From Candidatus Nanopusillus sp. (GTDB lineage Archaea; Nanobdellota; Nanobdellia; Nanobdellales; Nanobdellaceae), in the NCBI GenBank assembly GCA_046536775.1, contig JAWDMD010000018.1, positions 1-9,184 on the forward strand: DNA of 9,184 bases, in the 5' to 3' direction. The translations under genes and the position numbers were made by a program. How positions within the stretch are numbered: position 1 is the stretch's first letter; every line of letters begins with the position of its first letter. Shown piece by piece: positions 1 through 9,184 of the stretch. The notes under the pieces are model-generated. The model saw only the letters and a list, made by a program, of their open reading frames with translations, ran no database searches and was not told where the DNA came from.

Positions 1-544
1 CCTCCCCCTCGAGCGCGCGGGCCCAGCCGGCGCCGGGGTCCTCGAACGCGTCCTTCCACACCAGCACGGGGCGCCCCAGGCGCAGGGCGGCCCGCGCCGC
101 GGCCGTCACACCGTCGCGGCCAGTCGAGCTCACCACTATCACCGCGTCCGCGAGGAGCGCGAGCAGCGAGTCGGCCGCCGCGACGTCCACCCTGTTGTCC
201 AGCGGGGGCGACGGCGAGAGCAGGAGCCCGTTCTCGCGCAGCGCCGCCCTCAGGAACGGGTCGTCCCCGGCGAGGTCCTGAACCGGCGACGGGGATATCC
301 CGACCGCGCTGAGCTCGCGGGCCGCCATCGCCACGTGCAGCGCGACGCGGTCGAGCGGGCGGAACGTGCACCCCGCGACCGCCGCCGGCGCCTCGGGGGA
401 CCCTATGACCGCCACAAGAGGCCGCGGCGCGGCCGGCCCGACCGGCCCCTCCCACCACACGATGCTAGGGGCCGCCTCGGCCTCCCTCCCGCTGGGCCTC
501 CTCCCGAGGAGGGCCTCTATCGAGACGGCGTGCACGGGCTCCAT
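1..544 (-). CDS. DprA/Smf-like (SLOG-fold) protein, divergent paralog; 3' end runs off the left edge of the window
   Basis: Absent from the ORF track (no stop in window). My translation of the minus strand from the ATG (complement of 542-544) gives 181 stop-free codons: MEPVHAVSIEALLGRRPSGREAEAAPSIVWWEGPVGPAAPRPLVAVIGSPEAP...AADSLLALLADAVIVVSSTGRDGVTAAARAALRLGRPVLVWKDAFEDPGAGWARALEGE. By eye it aligns with the DprA at 8181-9053: LLGR..SG.E..AP....EG....VAV[IV]G; [IL]AL[IL]ADAV[IV].V; AALRLGRP[LV].[IV]W..AF[DE]DP. It lacks the SGLARGIDTTAH core motif. A GGGGGGTGA Shine-Dalgarno-like run (549-557, minus strand) ends 4 nt before the ATG, and the start lies 4 nt after the stop of pilin A. Confidence 0.6.
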   Translation of the reverse strand, partial: MEPVHAVSIEALLGRRPSGREAEAAPSIVWWEGPVGPAAPRPLVAVIGSPEAPAAVAGCTFRPLDRVALHVAMAARELSAVGISPSPVQDLAGDDPFLRAALRENGLLLSPSPPLDNRVDVAAADSLLALLADAVIVVSSTGRDGVTAAARAALRLGRPVLVWKDAFEDPGAGWARALEGE

Positions 545-548
545 GCTC

Positions 549-1019
549 TCACCCCCCAGGTGTCAACGTGATCGCGGTCCCGGAACCGATGATCGTCACC
601 GAGAACGAGCTGGGCCACGCGCCCGTGTACGGCACGGTGTACGTCAGGACGGCCGGCGAGTCTGGCGGGATGGTGCTGGCGGCGTTCCCATCCACGCTCA
701 GCTGGAACTGCCCGCCCCCGAGCGTGTATGTGTTCCCCGCCACGTACGTCACCACCTCGCTCGGCGTGAAGGGGGAGGTTCCGTAGCTGTAGAGGTACAG
801 CGTCACCTGCGTGCCGCCGCTCACCGGGGTCGCGGTCCAGTAGGTCAGGCTGATGCCCACGCCGGCGGACTGCGCTGATTGTGAGACAGCGCTGGCCGCC
901 GACTGCGACGCCGCTTGGTAGCGGAGGTAGAGCGGGTAGACGGCGGCCGCGAAGACCACCATGACTATCGCGATCAGGATGATCGCGGAGAGCATCTCGG
1001 AGACGGCCGCGCGCCTCAC
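549..1019 (-). CDS. Archaeal type IV pilin-like protein (class III signal peptide), paralog A
   Basis: 156-aa ORF. The N-terminus MRRAAVSEMLSAIILIAIVMVVFAAAVY is a short basic leader followed by a hydrophobic helix of about 22 residues. The remainder is S/T/G/V-rich and beta-type. A CTTTTTAAGG TATA-like element (1039-1048) is centred 24.5 nt upstream of the ATG, which implies a leaderless transcript. Confidence 0.85.
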   Translation of the reverse strand: MRRAAVSEMLSAIILIAIVMVVFAAAVYPLYLRYQAASQSAASAVSQSAQSAGVGISLTYWTATPVSGGTQVTLYLYSYGTSPFTPSEVVTYVAGNTYTLGGGQFQLSVDGNAASTIPPDSPAVLTYTVPYTGAWPSSFSVTIIGSGTAITLTPGG

Positions 1020-1038
1020 ACAGGCGCGTGCCGTGGCG

Positions 1039-1048
1039 CTTTTTAAGG
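1039..1048 (-). promoter_or_regulatory. TATA-box-like element for pilin A, embedded in the inverted repeat GGCGCTTT(1035-1042)/AAAGCGCC(1057-1064)
   Basis: CTTTTTAAGG is an AT-rich decamer in GC-rich DNA. It sits at the same 24.5-25.5 nt spacing from a start codon as four other copies in the window. Confidence 0.6.
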
Positions 1049-1100
1049 CGCCCTTGAAAGCGCCGATTCAGTTCGGGACTCGCGGCTATTATGAGTAAGC

Positions 1101-1111
1101 ATTATCTATTA
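1101..1111 (+). promoter_or_regulatory. Possible TATA-like element for the 1134 gene
   Basis: ATTATCTATTA is an AT-rich patch centred about 28 nt upstream of ATG 1134. It does not match the CCTTTTAAGG consensus seen elsewhere in the window. Confidence 0.3.
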
Positions 1112-1133
1112 CCAGAGCAGCATACAAGTTGGT

Positions 1134-1568
1134 ATGGCCGAGGTGGCGGGAAGGATAAAGCTCGGCGATGGAACCGAGCTGGAGCTCAGAATAATGATAC
1201 TTGGTATCAGGGAGGCCGGATTCTCGCCCTTCGGCGGTGTCAACTTCAGTGTGAAGGCGGTGGGCGGGATCATCACGAAGGACGTGCCGGAGAATCTCAG
1301 GAAGGCCGTCGCCGACAAGCCGACCGCCCCTCAAGAGCCGCCCCAGGATGGATGGGAGCTCGTCGATATCATGGAGCAGGCGCCCGCGATCGCGGAGGAG
1401 TCCATCACCTCGTCGCGGGGGAGATTCACCGTGAGGGTCGCCGCCGAGGCGACGATGGTCGCGCGCAACCTGAACTACCGGGTCGTGTTCGGGAACGCGA
1501 ACGAGCCCCTGTACTGGGCCACGTGGGTGTACAAGATCACATGGAAGCCCGAGGTGAGTGGCAAGTGA
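1134..1568 (+). CDS. Hypothetical protein (144 aa), no family recognised
   Basis: The translation has protein-like composition (MAEVAGRIKLGDGTELELRIMILGIREAGFSPFGGVNFSVKAVGG...YWATWVYKITWKPEVSGK). The overlapping frame (first half of the 1091 ORF) is R/G-rich junk. Its TGA stop overlaps the GTG of the next gene. Confidence 0.6.
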   Translation: MAEVAGRIKLGDGTELELRIMILGIREAGFSPFGGVNFSVKAVGGIITKDVPENLRKAVADKPTAPQEPPQDGWELVDIMEQAPAIAEESITSSRGRFTVRVAAEATMVARNLNYRVVFGNANEPLYWATWVYKITWKPEVSGK

Positions 1569-2146
1569 GCCGTCTGAGGGAGGCCTTTGGACCCATTCCG
1601 GAAATTTCGGCGGATCAGAGCTACGAGCTGCTCTCCAGCGGCGTCCTCACGAGCGCCTCAACGGCCACCGGCTCCGACCAGTGGAGGGCGATGGGGCCGA
1701 GCGGGCAATCTGTGAGCGGTGAGATCGCAAGCATCGAAGTGCTCGCGAGCGCGCAGTGGGTCGTGCTCAGTCCCACTCTCGAGCCCTCAAAACCATTTCC
1801 AAGAGCATCGCTATCGTATGAGGCGTCCACGGCGGATCCAATGTCGGAAGCGTACCGCATAATGAACGAGGTCTCCGGGAGGCGCGTCGTCGATGTGAAG
1901 GTCGAGCCCACCGAGCCGCCCTTGGACCGCTTCGGGCCCATAGTGACCGTGACGGTCGACGCGAACGCGAGGGAGGCCCTCGAGATGTGGGTGAGGGCGG
2001 CGCGGGAGGTCCGCGGGAAGGGATTCATACTGGATGTCGCATGGACCGGGAAGACCGACGTGAGCACTGAGGAGTTCATCGAGTTTTCCGCGCGCGCGCA
2101 AGTTAGGATGGGCATACCACCGGTCATCCTCGATGATGACCAATGA
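1565..2146 (+). CDS. Hypothetical protein (about 193 aa), no family recognised
   Basis: Only the second half of the 1091..2146 ORF reads like protein (VSRLREAFGPIPEISADQSYELL...ALEMWVRAAREVRGKGFILDVAWTGKTDVSTEEFIEFSARAQVRMGIPPVILDDDQ). An in-frame GTG at 1565 overlaps the upstream stop (GTGA, 1565-1568), a typical translational-coupling arrangement. Internal ATG starts further downstream cannot be excluded. Confidence 0.5.
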   Translation: MSRLREAFGPIPEISADQSYELLSSGVLTSASTATGSDQWRAMGPSGQSVSGEIASIEVLASAQWVVLSPTLEPSKPFPRASLSYEASTADPMSEAYRIMNEVSGRRVVDVKVEPTEPPLDRFGPIVTVTVDANAREALEMWVRAAREVRGKGFILDVAWTGKTDVSTEEFIEFSARAQVRMGIPPVILDDDQ

Positions 2147-2161
2147 TGTTAAAACGACAAG

Positions 2162-2181
2162 CCTCGCCCTTCAGGGCGGGG
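2162..2181 (+). other. GC-rich stem-loop just downstream of the 1565-2146 gene
   Basis: CCTCGCCC (2162-2169), loop TTCA, GGGCGGGG (2174-2181): an 8-bp stem including one G-U pair, 16 nt after the stop. No T-run follows, so a terminator role is uncertain. Confidence 0.3.
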
Positions 2182-2230
2182 AGGGGGTCAGCATCCCGTG
2201 GGAGCGTGAGGAGGGTGAGGAGGCGCGCCC

Positions 2231-2237
2231 GAGGTGA
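2231..2237 (+). promoter_or_regulatory. Shine-Dalgarno site for the PIN gene
   Basis: GAGGTGA, extending as GAGGTGAGATCC, closely matches the GGAGGTGATCC-type sequence complementary to the 16S rRNA 3' end. There are 11 nt between this motif and ATG 2249. Confidence 0.55.
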
Positions 2238-2248
2238 GATCCGCGGAG

Positions 2249-2827
2249 ATGCCCCTCACCGTGCCCAGGTCGTACTTGGACACTAGCGTGGTGATCTCCC
2301 TGATAACCCTCGATAGCTGCTATGAGAGCGCTAATAACCTCGTGGAGGAGGCCCCAAAGCCGCATTGTGTGTCGACGTGGACTCTGGCCGAGGCCTTGGG
2401 CCGGCTCTCGGAGGGGATTAGGAGCGGAAAGAGCTCCCCCGGATACGAGTTCCTAAGGGAAGGGATGGCCAGACGGGGGATCCCACCCCTCTCCTCGTCC
2501 CTTGAGGTCTTCACATATCTCACGAAAGAGCTCTCCGCGTGGGTTGCCGAGAATGGGGTCGAGGTCTGCGACGACCCCATCGATGACGCCGAGCTGAAGG
2601 TGGGGAACCGCTCGGTGAGGGCCTTCTGGGCCATTCGCGACGCCGCCGAGCTGGCGGCCCGCTTGGGGCTCAAGGCGAAGGACGCAATTCACTTGGCGTA
2701 CGTCAGGCGGCTCCGTCCCGGCCCCCTCCTGACGGTCGACAGCGACTTCACGCGCATCGCTGAGTGGATACGTTCCTTGGGGATCGAGGTCCGCGGGCTC
2801 CCATGTAAGAAAAAGGAGGATTCCTGA
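2249..2827 (+). CDS. PIN-domain (VapC-like) ribonuclease with an internal insertion
   Basis: The four PIN acidic positions occur in order: YLDTSVVIS (N-terminal Asp), TLAEALG (Glu), AKDAIHLAY (Asp), LLTVDSDF (C-terminal Asp). I prefer ATG 2249 to the track's GTG 2234 because that GTG lies inside the SD motif. At about 192 aa it is longer than a minimal PIN domain. Confidence 0.7.
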   Translation: MPLTVPRSYLDTSVVISLITLDSCYESANNLVEEAPKPHCVSTWTLAEALGRLSEGIRSGKSSPGYEFLREGMARRGIPPLSSSLEVFTYLTKELSAWVAENGVEVCDDPIDDAELKVGNRSVRAFWAIRDAAELAARLGLKAKDAIHLAYVRRLRPGPLLTVDSDFTRIAEWIRSLGIEVRGLPCKKKEDS

Positions 2828-2860
2828 GGGCGGAAAGGCCGGATCGGTACGGAGCCGGAT

Positions 2861-2884
2861 CTTTTAAGGCGCCCTTTTAAGGCG
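2861..2884 (+). promoter_or_regulatory. Tandem TATA-like elements upstream of the ATPase gene
   Basis: CTTTTAAGGCG occurs twice (2861-2871 and 2874-2884). The second copy, as CCTTTTAAGG 2873-2882, is centred 24.5 nt upstream of GTG 2902. Confidence 0.6.
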
Positions 2885-2901
2885 GCGCGGCACGCGCGGC
2901 C

Positions 2902-5052
2902 GTGGAGAGGCTCTCGGACCGCGACCTCCTGGGGCACGCGATGGTGATAGGGGCCACCGGCTCGGGGAAGACCAACTTCCTGCTCTACACCATGCACCAC
3001 ATACACAAGAGCATGGACGCGGCCGTGATCTTCGTGGACCCCCATGGCCAGGCGTCGCTCGACCTCGCGCGTATGATACCGGAGACCCGGGTGTTCGACC
3101 CCACCTACTCGCCCTTCGGCCTCAACCCACTGGAGCTCGGGCCCTACTCCTCGAGGGAGGACCGCGCGCTCATGGTCCAGCTCCGCGTGGGCGAGCTCCT
3201 CAGGATAATGGAGGACCTATTCTCGGTGACCGTCGACCGCGCCCCGAGGCTCCTCTGGATCCTGCGCGGCGCGCTGCTCTACCTCTACACGCTCACCGAC
3301 ACCCCGACCTTCTTGGACCTCTACTACCTGCTCACGGACCTGATGGGCATGGACGAGGGGGAGGCGGCCGAGTTCCTGGAGGGCGCCGGGCTGGACGACG
3401 AGACCGTGAGGCGCACGCTGGAGGCGATATCGAAGCTGGAGAGCGCGGCATTCACGGCCGTGCTCAACAGGATCTCTAACTTCGTGCTCCCCCCGGGGTC
3501 GCTCACAGCGAAGACCTTCTGCAGCAGGCGCACGACCGTGCCGTTCGCGGAGCTCCTGAGGCCGGGCTCGATATCCGCGTTCCGCCTCCCGACGTATGCG
3601 CTCCCGGAAGACTTCCGCCGCGTCGCCACGTCGACAATAGTGATGGACGTCTACTTCGAGGTCCAGAGGCGCTTCCGCTCCCTGGAGCTGGGAGGGGGCG
3701 GGGTGTCCTCATTCTCCGGGGGGCCGGCGCCCGTCTACTTGGTGATAGACGAGTTCCAGAACGTGGCGGACCTGGACCTCCTGAAGACCATACTCGCGGA
3801 GGCGCGCAAGTTCGGCCTCTACCTGATCGTGGCGCACCAGAACATAGCGCAGGTGAGGGAGGACCTCTTCCAGAGCTTCGCGGGGAACGCCGCGCTCGTG
3901 GTCTCGTTCCGCGTTGGGCCGGACGACGCGCTCAAGATGAAGCAGGTGCTGAACGTCAAGGACCAGGCCGTCCTCACCTCACTCCCCAACTACACCGCGA
4001 TAGTGCGCAGGAACCCGGTCGGCGGCGGAATACTGACCTATTACATGCGGGTGCCGCGCGCCCCCGCGCCGGTCCTCCCGGAGGACGAGGTGCTCAAACG
4101 CCTGAGGGAGGCCCCGCCCACCGCGAACGAGGACCGCAGCATAGTCTACAGGCGCGCGATGGAGGGCGCCGCGGAGAGGTCCGGGAGGCCGCCGCTGACG
4201 CCGGCGCGCTGGGCGGTGCTGGCGGCCGTGCGCCTGGGCATGGCGACCACCTATAAGGCGCTGGTGGACCTCATGTACCACCGCTACGCGTGGGACGAGA
4301 GCGTGACCCTGTCCGCGATAAACTACCTGATGGACTCCGGCCTGCTGGTCGCGGCCGGGGCCAGCGCCGACACCGAGTACGAGGTGACCCGGGAGGCTGA
4401 GAGGTACTTCCACAGCGCGGTCGCGGGTCCCCGGGCCGGCGGGCCGGTGCACAACGCGATAGTCCGGAAGCTCCTGCACGACTACTGGGAGCGCGGCTAC
4501 TACTGCGAGGTGGACGACGGCTCGCCCGGCCCCGAGAAACCGGACATAGTGGTCTGGAGGCCGGTCACGCGCCGCGTCGAATCGAAGTTCCAGACCCGCG
4601 AGGAGCGCGACCCGGCGCGCTGGGACCCCGAGCCGGTGGCGATAGAGGTGGAGACGATGCTCGGGCGCAGGCGGCAGATACCGAGGAACTTGGAGAAGGT
4701 GAGGCGCTACCCGCGCGCCGCCTTCGTGACGGACTCGAACGCGCATAAGGAGAAGCTCAGGGCGATAATGCGGGAGGCCGGCATAGAGTATCCAATCGAG
4801 GTGGTGAACATCGGCATGGTCGAGCAGACACCGGCCGAGGAGGACCTTGACTCGTTCCTCGTCACCCTGGTGATCAACGGGTGGCCTGGCGAGGAAAAGG
4901 CCGCGGAGCTCGCCGGGGCGGACGTGGAGGACGTGAGGGAGCACTTGGAGGGCCTCATAGAGGCCGGTGTGATAAGGCGCCGCGAGGACGGGTCGCTCGA
5001 GGCGGTGGTGGAGGCCGAGGGCGGCGGCCCCGGATCCCGACCACGTGCGTAA
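2902..5052 (+). CDS. P-loop NTPase of the VirB4/VirD4(TraG)/HerA-FtsK class (AAA_10-like), fused to a winged-helix module, a PD-(D/E)xK-like module and a second winged-helix module
   Basis: Walker A GATGSGKT (2950-2973) begins at residue 17. FVDPHG follows. Walker B is VYLVIDEFQN (3733-3762). ARKFGLYLIVAHQNIAQV (about 3802-3855) resembles the TraG/VirD4 C-terminal RK.G..l..Q..sQl motif. Towards the C-terminus: a wHTH-like stretch (PLTPARWAVLAAVRLGMATTYKALVDLM...INYLMDSGLLV), a nuclease-like stretch (GGPVHNAIVRKLL...EKPDIVVW...PVAIEVET, about 4440-4810), and a terminal wHTH-like stretch (EDVREHLEGLIEAGVIRRREDGSLE). No TM segment is evident. Confidence 0.85.
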   Translation: MERLSDRDLLGHAMVIGATGSGKTNFLLYTMHHIHKSMDAAVIFVDPHGQASLDLARMIPETRVFDPTYSPFGLNPLELGPYSSREDRALMVQLRVGELLRIMEDLFSVTVDRAPRLLWILRGALLYLYTLTDTPTFLDLYYLLTDLMGMDEGEAAEFLEGAGLDDETVRRTLEAISKLESAAFTAVLNRISNFVLPPGSLTAKTFCSRRTTVPFAELLRPGSISAFRLPTYALPEDFRRVATSTIVMDVYFEVQRRFRSLELGGGGVSSFSGGPAPVYLVIDEFQNVADLDLLKTILAEARKFGLYLIVAHQNIAQVREDLFQSFAGNAALVVSFRVGPDDALKMKQVLNVKDQAVLTSLPNYTAIVRRNPVGGGILTYYMRVPRAPAPVLPEDEVLKRLREAPPTANEDRSIVYRRAMEGAAERSGRPPLTPARWAVLAAVRLGMATTYKALVDLMYHRYAWDESVTLSAINYLMDSGLLVAAGASADTEYEVTREAERYFHSAVAGPRAGGPVHNAIVRKLLHDYWERGYYCEVDDGSPGPEKPDIVVWRPVTRRVESKFQTREERDPARWDPEPVAIEVETMLGRRRQIPRNLEKVRRYPRAAFVTDSNAHKEKLRAIMREAGIEYPIEVVNIGMVEQTPAEEDLDSFLVTLVINGWPGEEKAAELAGADVEDVREHLEGLIEAGVIRRREDGSLEAVVEAEGGGPGSRPRA

Positions 5053-5093
5053 TATCAGTGCAAATATTACCGGCACGGATCAGCGCCCGTGCC
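5049..5093. other. Two hairpins in the convergent junction between the ATPase gene and pilin B
   Basis: Hairpin 1 is GTAATAT (5049-5055) with ATATTAC (5064-5070) and an 8-nt loop. Hairpin 2 is GGCACGG (5072-5078) with CCGTGCC (5087-5093) and an 8-nt loop. Hairpin 1 overlaps the ATPase stop and hairpin 2 overlaps the pilin B stop. There is no strong T-run. Confidence 0.3.
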
Positions 5094-5895
5094 CGCCGCC
5101 CTCGGCGACCGCGGCGTGGAGCACCGCGACCGCCGTGTTATTGGACGGGTTCTGGATCACCAGCTTCACCGTGTACTGGCCGGGGCCGAGCGCCCCCGTG
5201 ACGACATTGGAGATCGTCTGTCCCGGCGGGACGCCACCGTTGCCCGGGTACATGGCGCTCGTCAGGACGAGCGACCCGCTGGCGTTGTACACGCAAACGG
5301 TGATGGTCTTGAGGTTCGACCCGCCTGTGTTCTTCACGTTCACGGCGAAGCCGTTGCTGGCGGGGCCGATGCTGGCCTCGATTGATGGGGCGCTGCCCTG
5401 CACCGCGGCCGGGCCGCTGGCCCACACGTAATCGGAGCCGGTCGCCACCACCTCCAGCGGGATCGTCTGCACGACGCCGTTCGCGTACACCACCTGCAGC
5501 TCCACGGGGTAGGTGACGCCGGCCATCAGCGGGCCAAGGGCCTGCACGGGGTAGTTCGGGCCGATGTCGACGGCGCCGCCGGCGCTCTGGCCGGGCGCCA
5601 CGGCCCCGATCACCTTCACGGGGGACTGTTGCTCGACGCCGTCGAACATCATCAGGTCGACCTCGTCGATCGAGATGGTTCCGGGGTCCTTCACGGTGAC
5701 GGTGAGGACGCCCGGGCCGCCGCCTTGGGCGAGCAGGTCCACGTCCTGCACGTACACCGCCTGCGCGACGCTGCTCTGCATCATCACCTGGCGCGCGTAA
5801 CTGTAGAGGGTGACGCCGGCCGCGAGCGTGACCGCTATCAGGATCACGGTCGCTATTATCGGGGCGACTGCCCTCCTGCGGCCGGCCGCCATCAT
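5080..5895 (-). CDS. Archaeal type IV pilin-like protein, paralog B, with two tandem beta-sandwich-like repeats
   Basis: 271 aa. MMAAGRRRAVAPIIATVILIAVTLAAGVTLY carries the canonical archaeal pilin N-terminal motif ([RK]-A-[IV]-[SA]-P-I-I-A-T). Two repeats share V.VK[DN].G...PGQ[ST]...G..Y.V.L.V. The palindromic CCTTATAAGG element is centred 24.5 nt upstream. Confidence 0.9.
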   Translation of the reverse strand: MMAAGRRRAVAPIIATVILIAVTLAAGVTLYSYARQVMMQSSVAQAVYVQDVDLLAQGGGPGVLTVTVKDPGTISIDEVDLMMFDGVEQQSPVKVIGAVAPGQSAGGAVDIGPNYPVQALGPLMAGVTYPVELQVVYANGVVQTIPLEVVATGSDYVWASGPAAVQGSAPSIEASIGPASNGFAVNVKNTGGSNLKTITVCVYNASGSLVLTSAMYPGNGGVPPGQTISNVVTGALGPGQYTVKLVIQNPSNNTAVAVLHAAVAEGGGHGR

Positions 5896-5914
5896 ATCAG
5901 AATTGTTTGGGGCG

Positions 5915-5924
5915 CCTTATAAGG
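5915..5924 (-). promoter_or_regulatory. TATA-box-like element for pilin B
   Basis: CCTTATAAGG is a perfect palindrome centred 24.5 nt from ATG 5895. Confidence 0.6.
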
Positions 5925-5965
5925 GGGCGGGCGCACAGTCCCAGCTCCGCTTTCCTCAGGAACTG

Positions 5966-6001
5966 AAAGAAAAAGGGGAAATACTCGCGCGGGAAGGCGC
6001 G
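5966..6001 (-). terminator. Candidate terminator for pilin C (hairpin plus oligo-T on the minus strand)
   Basis: The minus strand reads GCGCGCCTTCCCGCGCGAGTATTTCCCCTTTTTCTTTCAG immediately after the stop at 6003-6005. A 5-bp GC stem (5986-5990 with 5997-6001) is followed by TTTTTCTTT (complement of 5966-5974). Oligo-T is the usual archaeal termination signal. Confidence 0.5.
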
Positions 6002-6002
6002 C

Positions 6003-6506
6003 TCAGCTGCCGTACTCGCTCGCGGTGACCGAGGTCGTGATGACCTGGGTCTGGCCGTTGGCGTAGCCGACGGTCAGCTGGAGCTCGTAGCTCTGGCCGG
6101 CGACGACGTTGCTGAGGCCTGATATCTGGCTGGAGGTGAGGGTGCCGCTGGCGGTCTGGCCGGGCGCTATCGGCGTAGTTATCAGCTGCACGTCCACGGC
6201 CTGGCCGGCGAAGTTGGTGACGTTGACCGAGGTGATAGTCACGGTTCCGCCGTTACTTATGGTGACCGTGAGCGTGCCCGCGCCGGTCCCGCCCGGCACG
6301 ACCAGCGAGGCGGACTGGACGTTAGCTACCTGCGAGGCGGCGCTGGAGTGCAGCATTCCGGTCGCATAAACATATAGAAATGCACCAGCAACCACCGTTA
6401 TCACTATCAGAATTATCGTCGCGATGATCGGTGAAATCGCCTTCCTGCGCGCGGAGTTGGCATCACGGTGCACCAAGGGTGCGCCGATGGCGATGGACCT
6501 CATCAC
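6003..6506 (-). CDS. Archaeal type IV pilin-like protein, paralog C
   Basis: 167 aa. ...NSARRKAISPIIATIILIVITVVAGAFLYVY is a textbook archaeal class III signal/pilin N-terminal motif. It also has V.ISNGG...APGQTASG...AGQSYELQLTVGY. A TATA-like ATATTTAAGG lies 22-25 nt upstream of the two adjacent ATGs. Confidence 0.9.
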   Translation of the reverse strand: MMRSIAIGAPLVHRDANSARRKAISPIIATIILIVITVVAGAFLYVYATGMLHSSAASQVANVQSASLVVPGGTGAGTLTVTISNGGTVTITSVNVTNFAGQAVDVQLITTPIAPGQTASGTLTSSQISGLSNVVAGQSYELQLTVGYANGQTQVITTSVTASEYGS

Positions 6507-6523
6507 CCCCTCGTGCGCGAGGG

Positions 6524-6533
6524 ATATTTAAGG
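6524..6533 (-). promoter_or_regulatory. TATA-box-like element for pilin C, overlapping the stop codon of pilin D
   Basis: ATATTTAAGG is the only AT-rich patch between the two genes and sits at the expected spacing for a leaderless start at 6506 or 6503. Confidence 0.5.
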
Positions 6534-7001
6534 GGCCGCGACCCCTCGCGGCACGGCCTCCACGTTAGCGGTGAGGGCCTCGGTCGAGTTATCCGCGAAG
6601 TATACTAGGAGCGTCACGCGGTACTGCTGGCCGGGGGACACGGACGCCAGCGCCGGGAGCTCCCCCGGCGTGAGCGCGGCCGAGGCGGAGCCGCCCGGCC
6701 CGATCGGCCCGAGCGCGCGGGCGCTGCCGCTCCAGTTGCCGAGGCCCGTCACGTTCACGCACTCGATTGGCACGGAGCCCGTGTTCACTACGGATACCGT
6801 CAGCACGGCGGGCCCGCCCGGCGGCGCGGTGAGCTGCACGCTGCCCAACTGCGCGCCGGGCGCTGAGCCCACGGATCCCATGTAGCCCAGCGTGAATTTG
6901 TAGACCGCAATACCCAGAAGAATTGTTATCACGACTATCACGAGCTCCCAGATCAGCCCGGAGCGGCTGCCCCCGCGGCGCCTGCGCATCTCGTAGTCCA
7001 C
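6528..7001 (-). CDS. Type IV pilin-like protein, paralog D (atypical G/LIWEL N-terminus)
   Basis: 157 aa from GTG 7001, with an alternative ATG at 6989. RRRRGGSRSGLIWELVIVVITILLGIAVY is a basic leader, a Gly, then a hydrophobic helix containing a Glu. VSVVNTGS...SPGQQYRVTLLVYF is shared with paralogs B, C and E. A GGAG lies 9 nt upstream of the GTG, and the gene starts 19 nt after the upstream gene's stop, so it is probably co-transcribed. Confidence 0.8.
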   Translation of the reverse strand: MDYEMRRRRGGSRSGLIWELVIVVITILLGIAVYKFTLGYMGSVGSAPGAQLGSVQLTAPPGGPAVLTVSVVNTGSVPIECVNVTGLGNWSGSARALGPIGPGGSASAALTPGELPALASVSPGQQYRVTLLVYFADNSTEALTANVEAVPRGVAAP

Positions 7002-7020
7002 GGACGGGAGCTCCGTGTTC

Positions 7021-7653
7021 TCACCTCCCGCGCTGGCCCGCCGCCTCCAAGAGGGTTGCCCCCGCGCCGGCCCTCGGCCTCACGGTCACGCGCATCGTGC
7101 GCACGGCCTCGTCCCCGACCATCACGACCAGCTCGTGCTCCCCAATGGGCCAGTCGCCCGGCGTGAACACGAGCCTGTATCTGGAGTTCGATGGCCCCAC
7201 GGTCGCGGCGGCCGCCTCCTGCCCGTCCACCAGCAGGCGAACCTTCACTGGTCCCTGGGCCTTGACCTCGCCCTCTATGACGAGCGGCACGGTCGAATCG
7301 GCGTAGAGATCCGTCGGGGGCTCCGGCTCGGCGCGCGCGGGCCCCGGCGCGGCCCCGGGCGCAGTGGGGGGCGGCTGAACCGGGCGCGGGCCCCTGTGGG
7401 TCAGCGCGTACCACAGGATGAGCTCCATCGGGACAGAGCGGACGGGGAGGCTCGCGTAGGCGACCCCGAGCAGGATCACGAACATGAAGGCGGCGAACTG
7501 CGCCAGCATCCCCGCGCCGCTCAGCGCGGCCGCCAGCCCGGCGCCCACCGCGGCCGAGAGCGCGAATATAACGATCTGGCGCGGGCTGGCGGTGAACCCG
7601 AAGATGGGGACCGACCTCTCCTCCCACCGCGAGCGCTTGGGCCACCAGGCCAT
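7021..7653 (-). CDS. Two-TM membrane protein with a PrgI/VirB3-like N-terminus, a Pro/Ala-rich linker and a C-terminal beta-rich domain
   Basis: 210 aa. EERSVPIFGFTASPRQIVIFALSAAVGAGLAAAL resembles the PrgI-family signature as I recall it (short leader, f-G-[LF]-T-x-R-Q, then a TM segment). A second TM follows (AQFAAFMFVILLGVAYA), then SVPMELILWY, a linker (PRPVQPPPTAPGAAPGPARAEPEPP) and a beta-rich tail (PVKVRLLVDGQ...YRLVFTPGDWPIGEHELVVMVGDEAVRTMRVTVRP). The shared TATA element is 25.5 nt upstream. Confidence 0.55.
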   Translation of the reverse strand: MAWWPKRSRWEERSVPIFGFTASPRQIVIFALSAAVGAGLAAALSGAGMLAQFAAFMFVILLGVAYASLPVRSVPMELILWYALTHRGPRPVQPPPTAPGAAPGPARAEPEPPTDLYADSTVPLVIEGEVKAQGPVKVRLLVDGQEAAAATVGPSNSRYRLVFTPGDWPIGEHELVVMVGDEAVRTMRVTVRPRAGAGATLLEAAGQRGR

Positions 7654-7673
7654 CGCTCACGCGTGCCGCGGCG

Positions 7674-7683
7674 CCTTTTAAGG
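7674..7683. promoter_or_regulatory. Single shared TATA-like element for two divergent leaderless genes
   Basis: CCTTTTAAGG is centred at 7678.5. The minus-strand ATG (7653) and the plus-strand ATG (7704) are each exactly 25.5 nt from that centre. The intergenic region is only 50 nt long. Confidence 0.65.
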
Positions 7684-7703
7684 GACTGAAATACGAGCCC
7701 CCG

Positions 7704-8153
7704 ATGAGCGCCGTTATCCACGGGCACGGCCCCCTGAGCAGGAGGAAGGCAATCTCCGAGATGCTCGCCGTGATAATACTGCTCTCGCTCACGATAGTCG
7801 CCGGCGTGCTGGTCTACCAGATATTCACGGGGAAGGCCAACGTCGCGTCCAGCGCGACGGCGGTGTCGATCCAGAGCCTCACGATCTCGGGCGAGAATGG
7901 CGTAATGACCATCACGGTGCAGAACACGGGCACAAGTACAATACAATCCCTCCAAGTTAAGGTCTACCAGAGCGGCGGCGCCGCGGTGAACGTGAATGGT
8001 CAGTTCTCACCGCCGAGCATCGCGCCCGGGCAGACCACCTCCGGCACGTTCACCGGGACATTCTCGCCAGGCGAGCAGTACACGGTCGTGGTCACGGCGA
8101 CGGCCGCCGGCGGCAGCACGACCACGGCGACGGCGACCGTAACCGCGTCCTGA
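7704..8153 (+). CDS. Archaeal type IV pilin-like protein, paralog E
   Basis: 149 aa. ...GPLSRRKAISEMLAVIILLSLTIVAGVLVY is a class III signal-type N-terminus with the same SEML motif as paralog A. It also has ITVQNTGTS...APGQTTSG...SPGEQYTVVVTAT and a T/A/G-rich tail. Confidence 0.9.
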   Translation: MSAVIHGHGPLSRRKAISEMLAVIILLSLTIVAGVLVYQIFTGKANVASSATAVSIQSLTISGENGVMTITVQNTGTSTIQSLQVKVYQSGGAAVNVNGQFSPPSIAPGQTTSGTFTGTFSPGEQYTVVVTATAAGGSTTTATATVTAS

Positions 8154-8176
8154 GCTCGGGGGCGGCAACCAGATAT

Positions 8177-8198
8177 CTTTTTATTTAATTTTTATTAT
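8177..8198 (+). terminator. Oligo-T terminator candidate for pilin E, overlapping the 3' end of dprA on the opposite strand
   Basis: CTTTTTATTTAATTTTTATTAT contains T5, T3 and T5 runs and starts 24 nt after the stop at 8151-8153. It is the most AT-rich patch in the window. Confidence 0.5.
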
Positions 8199-9053
8199 AG
8201 AGTCGACCGAGCCCTCGTCCAGCCTCCTCGCGCCGCGCCCCGCCATCTCCCGGGGCCACGCGAGGTTCGGGTCGTCGAACGCGCCCCTCCAGATCCAGAG
8301 GGGCCTCCCCAGCCGCAGCGCCGCCAACCCCGTGAAGGCGGTCCCGCCGGCCGGGCCCGCCTCCACTAAGACCACGGCGTCCGCTATCAGCGCGATCGTG
8401 CGGTCGCGCGCCAGGAAGTCCCGCGGCCGCGTCGCGTGCCCGGGCGGGAACTGGCTGACCGCCAAATGTTTCCTCATTATCTCGAGCTGGAGCTCCCGGT
8501 TCTCGGGAGGGTAGAACCTGTCAAGTGGGGTCCCCAAGACGGCGATGGTTCTCCCACTGCGCTCGATCGCGGCCCGGTGCGCCGTGGTATCTATACCGCG
8601 CGCGAGCCCGCTCACAATTACGGCGCCCCGCTCCGCGAGCCTCCCAGCGATCAGCCGGGCCGCGCCCAGCCCGGCCGGCGAGGGCCGCCTGGTGCCGACC
8701 ACCGCGACGCGCGGCCCCCCGAGCGGGATCTCCAGCGCGCCCTCGACGTAGAGCTCGCGTGGCGCGTACGCGCGCTCGGCGCCGCTCAGCCCGCGCCCGA
8801 GGAGTTGCTCGGGGGTGACGGCCCTCGTCCCTCCCGCCCCCCTCGGCGCGGCGCGCAGGGCGCGGGTAGCCTCAGCTCGGGGTACTTGGCCGCGAGGCCC
8901 CTCAGAACCCCGAGCGCCCGGCGCGCGTCCCCCTCGGTGGCCCAAGGCTTCCTCTCCAGGAGGATCTCCAGCCCCTCCTCCGCGGTGAACTCCGGGAAGC
9001 GCGCGTTGTACTCGCAGAACATCACGAGCGTCGCGGCGAGCTCCAGCGTCCAT
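8181..9053 (-). CDS. dprA: DprA/Smf DNA-processing protein (Rossmann-like DprA domain); the true start is uncertain
   Basis: PRVAVVGTRRPSPAGLGAARLIAGRLAERGAVIVSGLARGIDTTAHRAAIERSGRTIAVLGTPLDRFYPPENRELQLEIM...SQFPPGHATRPRDFLARDRTIALIADAVVLVEAGPAGGTAFTGLAALRLGRPLWIW matches the DprA signature: VGsR, SG[LM]A.GID..AH, iAVlG.GlD..YP..N, F..RNRiia.l.dav.vvEa. The N-terminal portion of about 75 aa from ATG 9053 is R/G/A/P-rich, looks non-coding, and overlaps the upstream ORF. The only other canonical in-frame start I found before the domain is TTG at 8945. Confidence 0.85.
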   Translation of the reverse strand: MDAGARRDARDVLRVQRALPGVHRGGGAGDPPGEEALGHRGGRAPGARGSEGPRGQVPRAEATRALRAAPRGAGGTRAVTPEQLLGRGLSGAERAYAPRELYVEGALEIPLGGPRVAVVGTRRPSPAGLGAARLIAGRLAERGAVIVSGLARGIDTTAHRAAIERSGRTIAVLGTPLDRFYPPENRELQLEIMRKHLAVSQFPPGHATRPRDFLARDRTIALIADAVVLVEAGPAGGTAFTGLAALRLGRPLWIWRGAFDDPNLAWPREMAGRGARRLDEGSVDSIIKIK

Positions 9054-9184
9054 GGGTCCATCCCCAGAATCTCGCGGGCGTACGCCGCCGCGCGGTCGGT
9101 CACCTCGACGCGGGCCGGCCGCGCCTCCGCGTAGTAGGCGTCCGCGAGGTCCGGGCTGTAGGGCCCCCGAATATACATGTCGAA
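8786..9184 (-). CDS. Hypothetical protein, possibly SocA/YwgA (Panacea, DUF4065)-like; probably partial, as the frame stays open to the right edge
   Basis: (FD)MYIRGPYSPDLADAYYAEARPARVEVTDRAAAYAREILGMDPWTLELAATLVMFCEYNARFPEFTAEEGLEILLERKPWATEGDARRALGVLRGLAAKYPEL has protein-like composition. [YW]..GP[YV][SV]P.L recalls the W.YGPV.P.LY / GPYS..L motif of SocA/YwgA-type proteins. The last 25 aa or so (RLPAPCAPRRGGREGRGPSPPSNSSGAG) look non-coding. There is an ATG at 9178, but the two codons before it are also open. Confidence 0.4.
   Translation of the reverse strand, partial: FDMYIRGPYSPDLADAYYAEARPARVEVTDRAAAYAREILGMDPWTLELAATLVMFCEYNARFPEFTAEEGLEILLERKPWATEGDARRALGVLRGLAAKYPELRLPAPCAPRRGGREGRGPSPPSNSSGAG

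Follow-up and report, generated by a model that had tools for sequence, protein, structure and literature searches.

To our knowledge, archaeal conjugation is poorly understood, and the modules of Nitrososphaerota that combine a type IV pilus with a type IV secretion system (T4SS) have been described by annotation only. The closest described system to the locus reported here is the conjugation module of the thaumarchaeal integrative and conjugative elements (ICEs). These elements encode VirB4 and VirD4 ATPases, VirB6, VirB3, TadC, FlaI, PilT, a prepilin peptidase and pilins (Krupovic et al. 2019, PMC6563490). Their conjugation modules show poor synteny and have no known relaxase, and the same authors described the decay of ICEs into cryptic elements (PMC6563490). 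We analyzed a 9,184-bp stretch of DNA (the window), in which the gene of a coupling-type ATPase lies among five pilin-like genes (pil1 to pil5), a gene for a protein with two transmembrane (TM) helices (tm2), a PIN gene and two DprA-like genes. Our reading, which we hold to be probable but by some distance not certain, is that the window covers the middle of a larger gene cluster that varies between strains, a hybrid type IV pilus/type IV secretion conjugation module of the thaumarchaeal ICE kind, with toxin-antitoxin (TA) or defense cargo. The module is mosaic and possibly decaying. The first-pass annotation of the window did not recognize the combination of genes as a described system. The combination is not novel, since thaumarchaeal ICEs already pair pilus and T4SS parts (PMC6563490), and homologues of the window genes co-occur in several loci of Nitrososphaerota metagenome-assembled genomes (MAGs). 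The cluster is thus not a new kind of system: its type is known from the ICEs of Nitrososphaerota.

Other described systems share single features with the locus. The Sulfolobales Ced system and the Thermoproteales Ted system are likewise archaeal DNA-transfer machineries derived from T4SSs, domesticated for import (PMC9905601). UpsA and UpsB pilins, which the window pilins resemble, mediate aggregation before Ced-dependent exchange (PMC9905601; PMC11868833). ShosTA is a type IV TA and anti-phage system with a phosphoribosyltransferase (PRTase) toxin and a DprA-like antitoxin (PMC11961720).

The ATPase carries much of the argument. It exceeds the Pfam gathering scores of TrwB_AAD_bind (46 bits; gathering score 20.5), TraG-D_C (29.7; 22) and T4SS-DNA_transf (20.9; 20.1), and also that of DUF87. 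The AlphaFold2 model (17 homologues; pLDDT 83.5) has a RecA-type core, with an all-alpha insertion between the Walker motifs (residues ~85-220) that is typical of TrwB. Foldseek matched the model to HerA, DndH-C, TrwB and VirB4 with similar scores. These folds, together with the Pfam matches, fit a VirD4/TraG-class coupling-type protein and agree with the VirB4/VirD4/HerA class assigned in the first-pass annotation. The P-loop stands at the very start of the protein, which lacks the TM helices of bacterial coupling proteins. It is intact and conserved over 25 contigs and up to Conexivisphaera calida, with invariant Walker and C-terminal residues.

In a tblastn search against PLSDB, the ATPase shared 25-28% identity with the TraG-like ORF1025 of pNOB8 and its counterparts on conjugative plasmids of Sulfolobus and Acidianus, and 32% with Thermococcus nautili pTN3. 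The alignments to the 1025-aa open reading frame (ORF) of pNOB8 and its relatives cover 44-76% of the ATPase length. The Sulfolobus plasmids (pNOB8, pKEF9, pARN, pTC, pAH1) have a TraG-like/TrbE-like pair, and neither they nor the window show a classical relaxase partner. The plasmid TraG-like proteins differ in being longer and in having other terminal domains, and the identity is low. We know of no report that Sulfolobus conjugative plasmids use type IV pilins. Orthology of the ATPase to CedB or CedD was considered and rejected: the NCBIfam scores are 36.3 bits for CedB (cut-off 700) and 22.5 for CedD (cut-off 600), and they cover the P-loop region only. In contrast to the VirB4-class proteins CedB, CedD and TedB, the window ATPase is of the VirD4 class.

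The HerA-like matches bear on a different explanation, in which the window is a defense island: the ATPase would be a HerA-type anti-phage motor with a C-terminal nuclease-like effector and would act jointly with the DprA/ShosA-like and PIN genes, leaving the pilins as unrelated neighbors. The best Foldseek matches do include the HerA proteins of the HerA-Sir2, HerA-DUF4297 and DndH systems, and PADLOC gave a mad8 match (7.8e-13) and weak HerA matches, with PIN and ShosA-like genes lying nearby. However, the TrwB and TraG coupling-protein families score above threshold, and the all-alpha insertion is that typical of TrwB. The conserved neighbors of the ATPase are VirB3-, VirB4-, VirB2- and VirB6-like proteins and FlaI, not Sir2, DUF4297 or NurA, and its plasmid homologues are conjugative. 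The PIN and DprA-like genes are not conserved neighbors, and the nuclease fold is unconfirmed. The Pfam families, the insertion and the conserved neighbors led us to reject a HerA-type defense motor, and we regard the defense-island explanation as highly improbable. A conflict or defense island had been offered earlier as the alternative reading of this DNA. It fits the DprA-like and PIN genes better than a transfer role does.

The C-terminal ~300 residues of the ATPase form a winged helix-turn-helix (wHTH) domain, an alpha/beta domain and a second wHTH domain in the AlphaFold2 model (pLDDT 85). In the window ATPase the wHTH/alpha-beta/wHTH module corresponds to residues ~500-716 (window 4400-5052), and it is conserved across Nitrososphaerota. 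Residues D538, D548, E582, E584, N596 and K599 of the alpha/beta domain are invariant (17-20 homologues). A Foldseek search of the C-terminus against the PDB returned winged-helix proteins only, for example MarR and pNOB8 AspA. No nuclease match for the domain, which was assessed as a possible PD-(D/E)xK nuclease with a catalytic D...(D/E)xK, was found by Foldseek against the PDB, by a PDB profile search or in Pfam. The C-terminus had been annotated as DNA-binding and nuclease-like; DNA binding by the predicted winged-helix modules is supported by the model, and the nuclease assignment is putative. A more speculative proposal, which we consider decidedly unlikely, is that the conserved module could be the missing DNA-processing nuclease that substitutes for a relaxase in archaeal conjugation. 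The locus would then be a host-domesticated exchange system of the Ced/Ted type with Ups-like type IV pili, and the DprA-like proteins would help to establish the incoming DNA.

The five pilin-like genes with class III signal peptides that the first-pass annotation listed are all borne out. The N-terminus of each product is basic and comes with a class III-type cleavage motif and a single hydrophobic TM helix. The archaellin/pilin N-terminal model TIGR02537 (cut-off 20) is passed by pil2 (36.5 bits) and pil3 (44.9 bits). The signal peptide of pil1 reads RRA/AVSEML... (cleavage at the slash), with its TM helix at residues 9-27; the matches of pil1 to UpsB and Arch_flagellin are weak. UpsA was matched by pil2 (5e-11), pil3 (9e-18, with Pilin_N at 23.7 bits), pil4 (9e-6, TM helix 15-33) and pil5 (1.6e-10, with BasC at 2e-7 and CARDB at 26.5 bits). 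All Ups matches of pil1-5 are sub-threshold, with UpsA at 25.8-64.7 bits (cut-off 130) and UpsB at 19.6 (cut-off 70). By these scores, which are far under the equivalog cut-offs, the window pilins are relatives and not orthologues of the UpsA and UpsB of Sulfolobales, and in this they differ from the Ced/Ted setting, as also in that no CedA or TedA was seen near the window. The products of pil2-5 are mutually 27-40% identical; pil1 is more remote.

The tm2 product has TM helices at residues 27-45 and 53-71, as had been annotated. The PrgI/VirB3-like label that went with them is less secure: the match to PrgI is 19.5 bits, under the Pfam gathering score of 27, and the label is suggested by synteny with VirB4-like genes. 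A tm2 homologue lies near a VirB4-like ATPase gene in six loci (L002, L003, L112, L008, L009, L012; related contigs and loci carry labels of this type). In L008 and L012 it directly precedes that gene; in L002 it lies two genes upstream. The phmmer values are 3e-41 for L002 and 1e-13 to 1e-15 for L008, L009 and L012. A dedicated search for tm2 homologues gave 6 close relatives only; tm2 is conserved.

The tm2 and pil4 genes look co-transcribed, since the gap from tm2 to pil4 is 19 nt and contains no TATA-like box. The 4-nt gap and Shine-Dalgarno-like stretch GGGGGGTGAG noted earlier between pil1 and the left DprA-like gene are present, and these two genes are probably co-transcribed as well. 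A near-identical 22-nt element, composed of a TATA box and CGGCACGCG, stands before pil1, the ATPase gene and tm2 and ends 5-6 nt ahead of the start codons. The transcripts behind it look leaderless. The pattern TTWAAARGCGSCRCGGCACGCG has 3 matches in the window, compared with 0 expected. The element of the ATPase gene forms a 25-nt inverted repeat with that at 7660-7684. In L090, a close relative of the window, the 22-nt element also precedes another pilin gene (1390-1411(-)) and the FlaI gene (upstream of 15755(-)). In loci of the L002 type an analogous TTTAAG-N9-10-GCATG arrangement precedes nearly every gene. Given this analogous element on most L002 genes, we downgraded the 22-nt element as proof of a regulon.

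To see the module in other lineages, we retrieved loci around homologous ATPases (31-57% identity) and clustered the ORFs of loci and window together. The neighborhood is conserved at ATPase identities of 35-57%. Within the Nitrososphaerota MAG loci, recurrent neighbors of the ATPase are a ~430-aa protein (C4) encoded directly upstream (L002, L005, L008, L009, L011, L012, L013), a ~600-aa multi-TM protein that is VirB6-like by topology, and a second ATPase. The latter is an AAA_10/TraG-P-loop protein, VirB4-like and just under the Pfam thresholds. A pil1 homologue (phmmer 2.6e-25) lies beside the ATPase in the UBA164 loci L004/L007, where there is also an integrase. A pil3-type pilin, TadC and FlaI occur together with the ATPase in L013, and FlaI-type ATPases are found in L002, L013 and L113. 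In Desulfurococcaceae and Sulfolobales MAGs (L016, L017) a polytopic membrane protein and a VirB4-like ATPase accompany the ATPase. ICE-like loci of Nitrososphaerota MAGs thus contain homologues of the ATPase, tm2, pil1, pil3-type pilins, FlaI, C4 and a VirB2-like protein. The DNA-transfer-type apparatus of pilins, ATPase and two-TM protein proposed in the first-pass annotation recurs elsewhere and holds up, also through the match of the ATPase to the TraG-like ORF of pNOB8. The adjacency that it proposed to check in related archaea is found for the pilin, ATPase and PrgI-like genes; in the related ICE-like loci no DprA gene was found with them.

The edges of the window hide further parts of the module. 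Scanning metagenomes yielded 25 additional contigs with 77-98% identity to parts of the window. The flanks were read from contigs of 88-92% identity, among which L090 (92%) extends the view of this lineage to 16.5 kb in all. On the right, L090 encodes a 581-aa T2SSE/FlaI-type ATPase (PF00437, 1.8e-36; 2e-180 to the FlaI of L002) whose gene ends ~200 bp past the window edge; FlaI is also present in L089. That no FlaI/PilB-like gene is present, as the first-pass annotation stated, is correct inside the window, but the absence is an artefact of the window edge, since the gene lies just beyond it in L090. On the left, L088/L090 have in order the completed left DprA-like gene (222 aa in L088), a 186-aa ORF, a C4 homologue (446 aa; ~1e-37 to the ATPase partner C4) and a 121-aa protein. 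The 121-aa protein (L088 610-975) has two TM helices, lies 2.1-2.4 kb left of the window and is homologous to an ICE gene (1e-44). By size and topology only, it is a VirB2-like candidate, the class of CedA1 and TedC in the import systems. The VirB2-like and C4 genes span 0.7-2.4 kb left of the window, and farther left in L090 is another pilin-like gene. The window is therefore a truncated view of the module that leaves FlaI, C4 and the VirB2-like gene outside. Of the flanking genes that the first-pass annotation proposed to look for, FlaI was seen, together with the VirB2-like and C4 genes, but no VirB6/CedA-like protein, prepilin peptidase, integrase or att site within the 16.5 kb.

The slot 3' of the ATPase gene is hypervariable between strains (Table 1). 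It holds pil2 in the window and in five of the related contigs, and in others a VirB4-like ATPase, a large surface protein, an IS605 TnpB gene or almost nothing. No VirB4-like gene was found in the window or in the 16.5 kb of L090. A homologue of the 594-aa multi-TM (VirB6-like) protein of L002 was likewise looked for, and not found, in the window and 26 close contigs. No integrase is encoded among the ORFs of L088, L090, L093, L106 and L109; the element boundaries lie beyond the contigs. IS605 TnpB insertions are present in five contigs (L001, L090, L093, L106, L109). The VirB4-like ORF of L109 has 508 aa with a replaced N-terminus, compared with 632 aa in L002. In the same contig, the VirB4-like N-terminal part (~175 aa; 731-1250(+)) has a second copy within a 233-aa membrane-anchored protein encoded on the other strand (2914-3615(-)). 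Over the 26 related contigs, the ATPase, the VirB3-like protein, most pilins and FlaI emerge as the core, and VirB4, pil2, the PIN cassette and the DprA-like genes as swappable parts.

Such variability could mean that the genes are together by chance, as an adhesion or aggregation pilus locus beside the remnants of a dead ICE (VirD4-, VirB3- and VirB2-like genes and C4), insertion sequences and TA/defense genes, with no DNA transfer today. The mosaicism is extreme for strains that are 77-98% identical, VirB4 is missing here and N-terminally replaced in L109, TnpB has inserted in five contigs, VirB6, integrase and att site were not found, and ICE decay to cryptic elements has precedent (PMC6563490). 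However, the ATPase has stayed intact and conserved in 25 contigs and as far as C. calida (69%), and tm2 is conserved too. Pilins, FlaI and T4SS-like genes occur together in several distant MAG loci, and the apparent co-transcription of tm2 with pil4 and the common promoter element tie pilus and T4SS-like genes to each other. We consider a chance juxtaposition unlikely, though of real weight.

As annotated earlier, there is one DprA-like gene at either end. The right protein matches PF02481 (1.5e-47). Its TIGR00732 score of 142.6 is under the cut-off of 191.15, and the PADLOC ShosA model gives 5.6e-64 (214 bits). Its start codon was set from the alignment with P0121 and L090. It belongs to the short DprA/Smf family, which is common in Nitrososphaerota; proteins from Nitrosotenuis, Nitrososphaera, Caldarchaeum and Conexivisphaerales are 55-60% identical to it. 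The left protein is divergent and sub-threshold, with PF02481 at 26.8 bits (gathering score 29.6) and TIGR00732 at 22.2; its full-length L088 orthologue (222 aa) reaches 37 bits for PF02481. In the window, the left copy has an 18-aa internal deletion relative to L088 and no SGLARGID motif. In L090, the right copy (12499-13098(-)) has a 14-aa in-frame deletion that removed the GIDxxAH motif, and the left gene is interrupted by IS605 TnpB. The two internal deletions suggest relaxed selection. In L109/L110 a 189-aa PIN-like gene occupies the right slot, beside orfR. In L093, L095 and L100 a related DprA gene (~82% nucleotide identity) lies left of pil1 in inverted orientation, and in L093 it overlaps the gene of a 278-aa PRTase (the pair at 2121-3661).

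That PRTase matches the PADLOC ShosT model at 1.2e-15, and its score for ComF (TIGR00201) is 28.8 bits, compared with a cut-off of 233.55. ComFC has an N-terminal Cys-rich zinc finger; no CxxC pairs were found in the N-terminus of the PRTases of L093 and L115. On these two grounds the ComF reading of the L093 protein was dropped in favor of a ShosT-like one. A homologous DprA and PRTase pair is found in an ordinary chromosomal context in Nitrosotenuis uzonensis (L115 6001-7331). In Nitrososphaerota, a small PRTase gene behind a short DprA gene forms a conserved pair (PRTases 31.6% identical, E 6e-25), and the L093/L115 pair resembles a minimal ShosTA without SAM and pyrophosphatase domains. 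A Sulfolobales MAG (L017) has a 650-aa DprA-PRTase fusion (6805-8754(-)) beside a VirD4-like ATPase (9164-12016(+)) and near a VirB4-like ATPase. Other members of the short-DprA family lie near TnpB, PIN, HNH or RHH genes or near unrelated genes, and no DprA gene was found near the ATPase in the related ICE-like loci.

Compared with ShosTA (PMC11961720, PMC12961424), the likeness thus consists of the ShosA match of the right protein, the ShosT-like PRTase pairs of L093 and L115 and the L017 fusion. The differences are that no PRTase gene is adjacent in the window, that the gene order in the archaeal pairs is A then T, that the archaeal DprA-like protein has no ShosA N-terminal SAM domain (212 vs 331 aa), and that the PRTase has no ShosT pyrophosphatase domain. 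Bacterial competence also has type IV pilins and a DprA-family protein in one neighborhood, and a PRTase-fold protein stands beside DprA in a sister strain. Unlike competence loci, however, the region shows no ComEC/ComFA, the PRTase is not ComFC-like and the DprA genes are not conserved neighbors. From bacterial DprA the right copy differs in its TIGR00732 score and in consisting of the Rossmann domain only, without SAM and C-terminal domains. For the class of the right protein, context is more telling than sequence alone. The DprA slots are swapped, truncated or deleted between strains and the family occurs in unrelated contexts, so the most economical reading is that the DprA-like genes are mobile cargo of TA/defense type and not core transfer parts. 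These proteins may still have a role in handling transferred DNA.

The first-pass annotation had instead made DprA an integral part of a dedicated DNA-uptake or exchange system, in which pili would capture DNA or partner cells, the ATPase would translocate and process the DNA, and the DprA paralogues would load single-stranded DNA on a recombinase. This would be an analogue, with type IV pilins, of Ced and Ted, which were themselves recruited from T4SSs for import. The flanking position of the DprA-like genes, one of them operonic with pil1, speaks for it, as do the DprA-PRTase fusion that adjoins a homologous ATPase in L017, a pairwise similarity closer to canonical DprA than to E. coli ShosA, and the wide occurrence of the locus in the population. 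Against such a system, DprA is absent from all related ICE-like loci; in sister strains the two DprA slots carry other genes (a PIN-like gene or a ShosA/ShosT-like pair), are cut by TnpB or have internal deletions; and members of the family occur in unrelated surroundings in Nitrosotenuis and other MAGs. The partner PRTase is a far better match to ShosT than to ComF and has no Cys-rich N-terminus, no ComEC-like channel was seen, and ICEs are already known to combine these parts (PMC6563490). We judge a dedicated uptake system distinctly improbable, and the claim that DprA belongs to the core is not supported.

The PIN gene belongs to a 1.8-kb block. The direct repeat TTTTAAGGCGCCCTT at 1041-1060 and 2862-2881 brackets orf144, orfB and the PIN gene, and the block is missing in L001, L091, L095 and L102, where the promoters of pil1 and the ATPase gene stand back to back. 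It looks like a cassette inserted between these two promoters. The PIN assignment made earlier is confirmed (PF01850, 29.3 bits; gathering score 23.6). The Panacea-like ORF of the first-pass annotation, orfR, found no match in Pfam, NCBIfam, PADLOC or PHROGs; its full-length version of ~294 aa is present in L090 (13099-13981). None of these databases gave a family for orf144 or orfB, and orfB, upstream of the PIN gene, has no recognizable antitoxin family. The block is probably cargo of the TA type. A C-terminal module of orfB (~75 aa; window 1895-2120) recurs in the orfR of L090 (13162-13387) on the opposite strand with 79% nucleotide identity, which suggests domain shuffling between the two cargo regions.

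The window has a G+C content of 67.6% and 13 plausible genes (Table 1). G+C is uneven between genes, from 62.6-63.8% (orf144, orfB, PIN, pil3, pil5) to 72-77% (both DprA-like genes, orfR, tm2), consistent with a mosaic origin. Scans of the window for tRNA genes and Rfam families were empty, and a tRNA scan of 8 related contigs found none. The closest relatives of the ATPase are in JGI hot-spring metagenomes (98% and 89% identity), followed by the C. calida homologue (P0003, 69%) and Nitrososphaerota MAGs (55-57%). From these best matches, the window probably has a Conexivisphaerales-like (Nitrososphaerota) affinity. Exact-sequence look-ups with the window ATPase and with P0003 gave no entry. 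A scan of genome contigs with the single ATPase sequence found no relative; an alignment-based scan found mainly Patescibacteria and not C. calida. Relatives of ~28-31% identity occur in hundreds of Patescibacteria genomes, mostly Saccharibacteria (loci L021-L086), and have an additional N-terminal PF26449 domain.

Table 1. Features of the window, and contents of the slot 3' of the ATPase gene in the window and related contigs.
Feature	Position	Strand	Description
Left DprA-like gene	1-544	-	divergent paralogue; 3' end cut at window edge
pil1	549-1019	-	archaeal type IV pilin-like, 156 aa
Promoter-like element of pil1	1025-1046	-	TATA box + CGGCACGCG, directly upstream
Cassette orf144-orfB-PIN	1061-2861	+	putative insertion between TTTTAAGGCGCCCTT direct repeats
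orf144	1134-1568	+	no family match
orfB	1565-2146	+	no family match
PIN gene	2234-2827	+	PF01850
Promoter-like element of ATPase gene	2875-2896	+	TATA box + CGGCACGCG
ATPase	2902-5052	+	VirD4/TraG-class (type IV coupling protein-like), 716 aa
pil2	5080-5895	-	pilin-like with extra C-terminal domain, 271 aa; hypervariable slot
pil3	6003-6506	-	type IV pilin, 167 aa
pil4	6528-7001	-	pilin-like, 157 aa
tm2	7021-7653	-	two-TM VirB3/PrgI-like, C-terminal beta-rich domain, 210 aa
Promoter-like element of tm2	7660-7681	-	TATA box + CGGCACGCG
pil5	7704-8153	+	pilin-like, 149 aa
Right DprA-like gene	8181-8819	-	212 aa, Rossmann domain only
orfR	8786-9184	-	3' part; overlaps DprA start; leaves window at right edge
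Slot 3' of ATPase gene: pil2	window (5053-5900), L087, L089, L090, L099, L104		
Slot 3' of ATPase gene: VirB4-like ATPase	L091 5019-5936, L107 697-2244, L109 707-2254		8.8e-118 to L002 protein
Slot 3' of ATPase gene: surface protein	L106 654-5201		1515 aa, YVTN repeats
Slot 3' of ATPase gene: IS605 TnpB	L001 3044-4477		
Slot 3' of ATPase gene: almost nothing	L094, L097, L098		

Set against the thaumarchaeal ICE module (PMC6563490), the locus shares a VirD4/TraG-like ATPase, a putatively VirB3-like protein, a VirB4-like ATPase (in sister strains), pilins and FlaI. It comes from the same phylum, and both have poor synteny, extensive recombination in the module and no recognizable relaxase. It differs in its unusually many pilin paralogues, in the DprA/ShosA-like and PIN cargo inside the module, and in its Conexivisphaerales-like lineage, which is outside the genomes of Krupovic et al.

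Several observations weigh against assigning the window to such a module. In the window strain VirB4 is absent from its slot, and pil2 is there instead, unlike in the ICEs. In the 16.5 kb of this lineage neither an integrase, an att site nor a TFIIB-ParB pair was seen, and no VirB6-like or TadC-like protein or prepilin peptidase. Both the VirB3/PrgI label and the VirB4 label are putative, being drawn from sub-threshold Pfam scores and synteny. The common promoter element may be a lineage-general or lineage-typical initiator and not the signal of a regulon. In a phmmer search against the PDB, the right DprA-like protein scores higher with S. pneumoniae DprA (101 bits) than with E. coli ShosA (61 bits). 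DprA-like genes lie near the ATPase twice in this lineage and once as the L017 fusion, which could reflect a functional tie.

If the window does belong to a hybrid conjugation module, a FlaI-powered pilus built of the window pilins would bring about cell-cell contact. The soluble, presumably hexameric coupling-type ATPase would bind DNA via its winged-helix modules and pass it to a membrane channel of VirB3-, VirB2-, VirB6- and VirB4-like proteins. From sequence alone, the DNA could be exported, as happens in plasmid conjugation, or imported in the manner of Ced. With pil2 in the VirB4 slot, the apparatus may be partly decayed or reliant on genes elsewhere. The orf144-orfB-PIN block and both DprA-like genes would be strain-variable cargo, most likely of TA or defense type.

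The main loose end is the conserved and uncharacterized C-terminal DNA-binding module on the coupling-type ATPase. The locus adds a thermoacidophilic, Conexivisphaerales-like example to the hybrid pilus/T4SS modules. It also calls for caution in reading DprA-family genes in archaeal islands, which may encode antitoxins of the ShosA type rather than mark competence.

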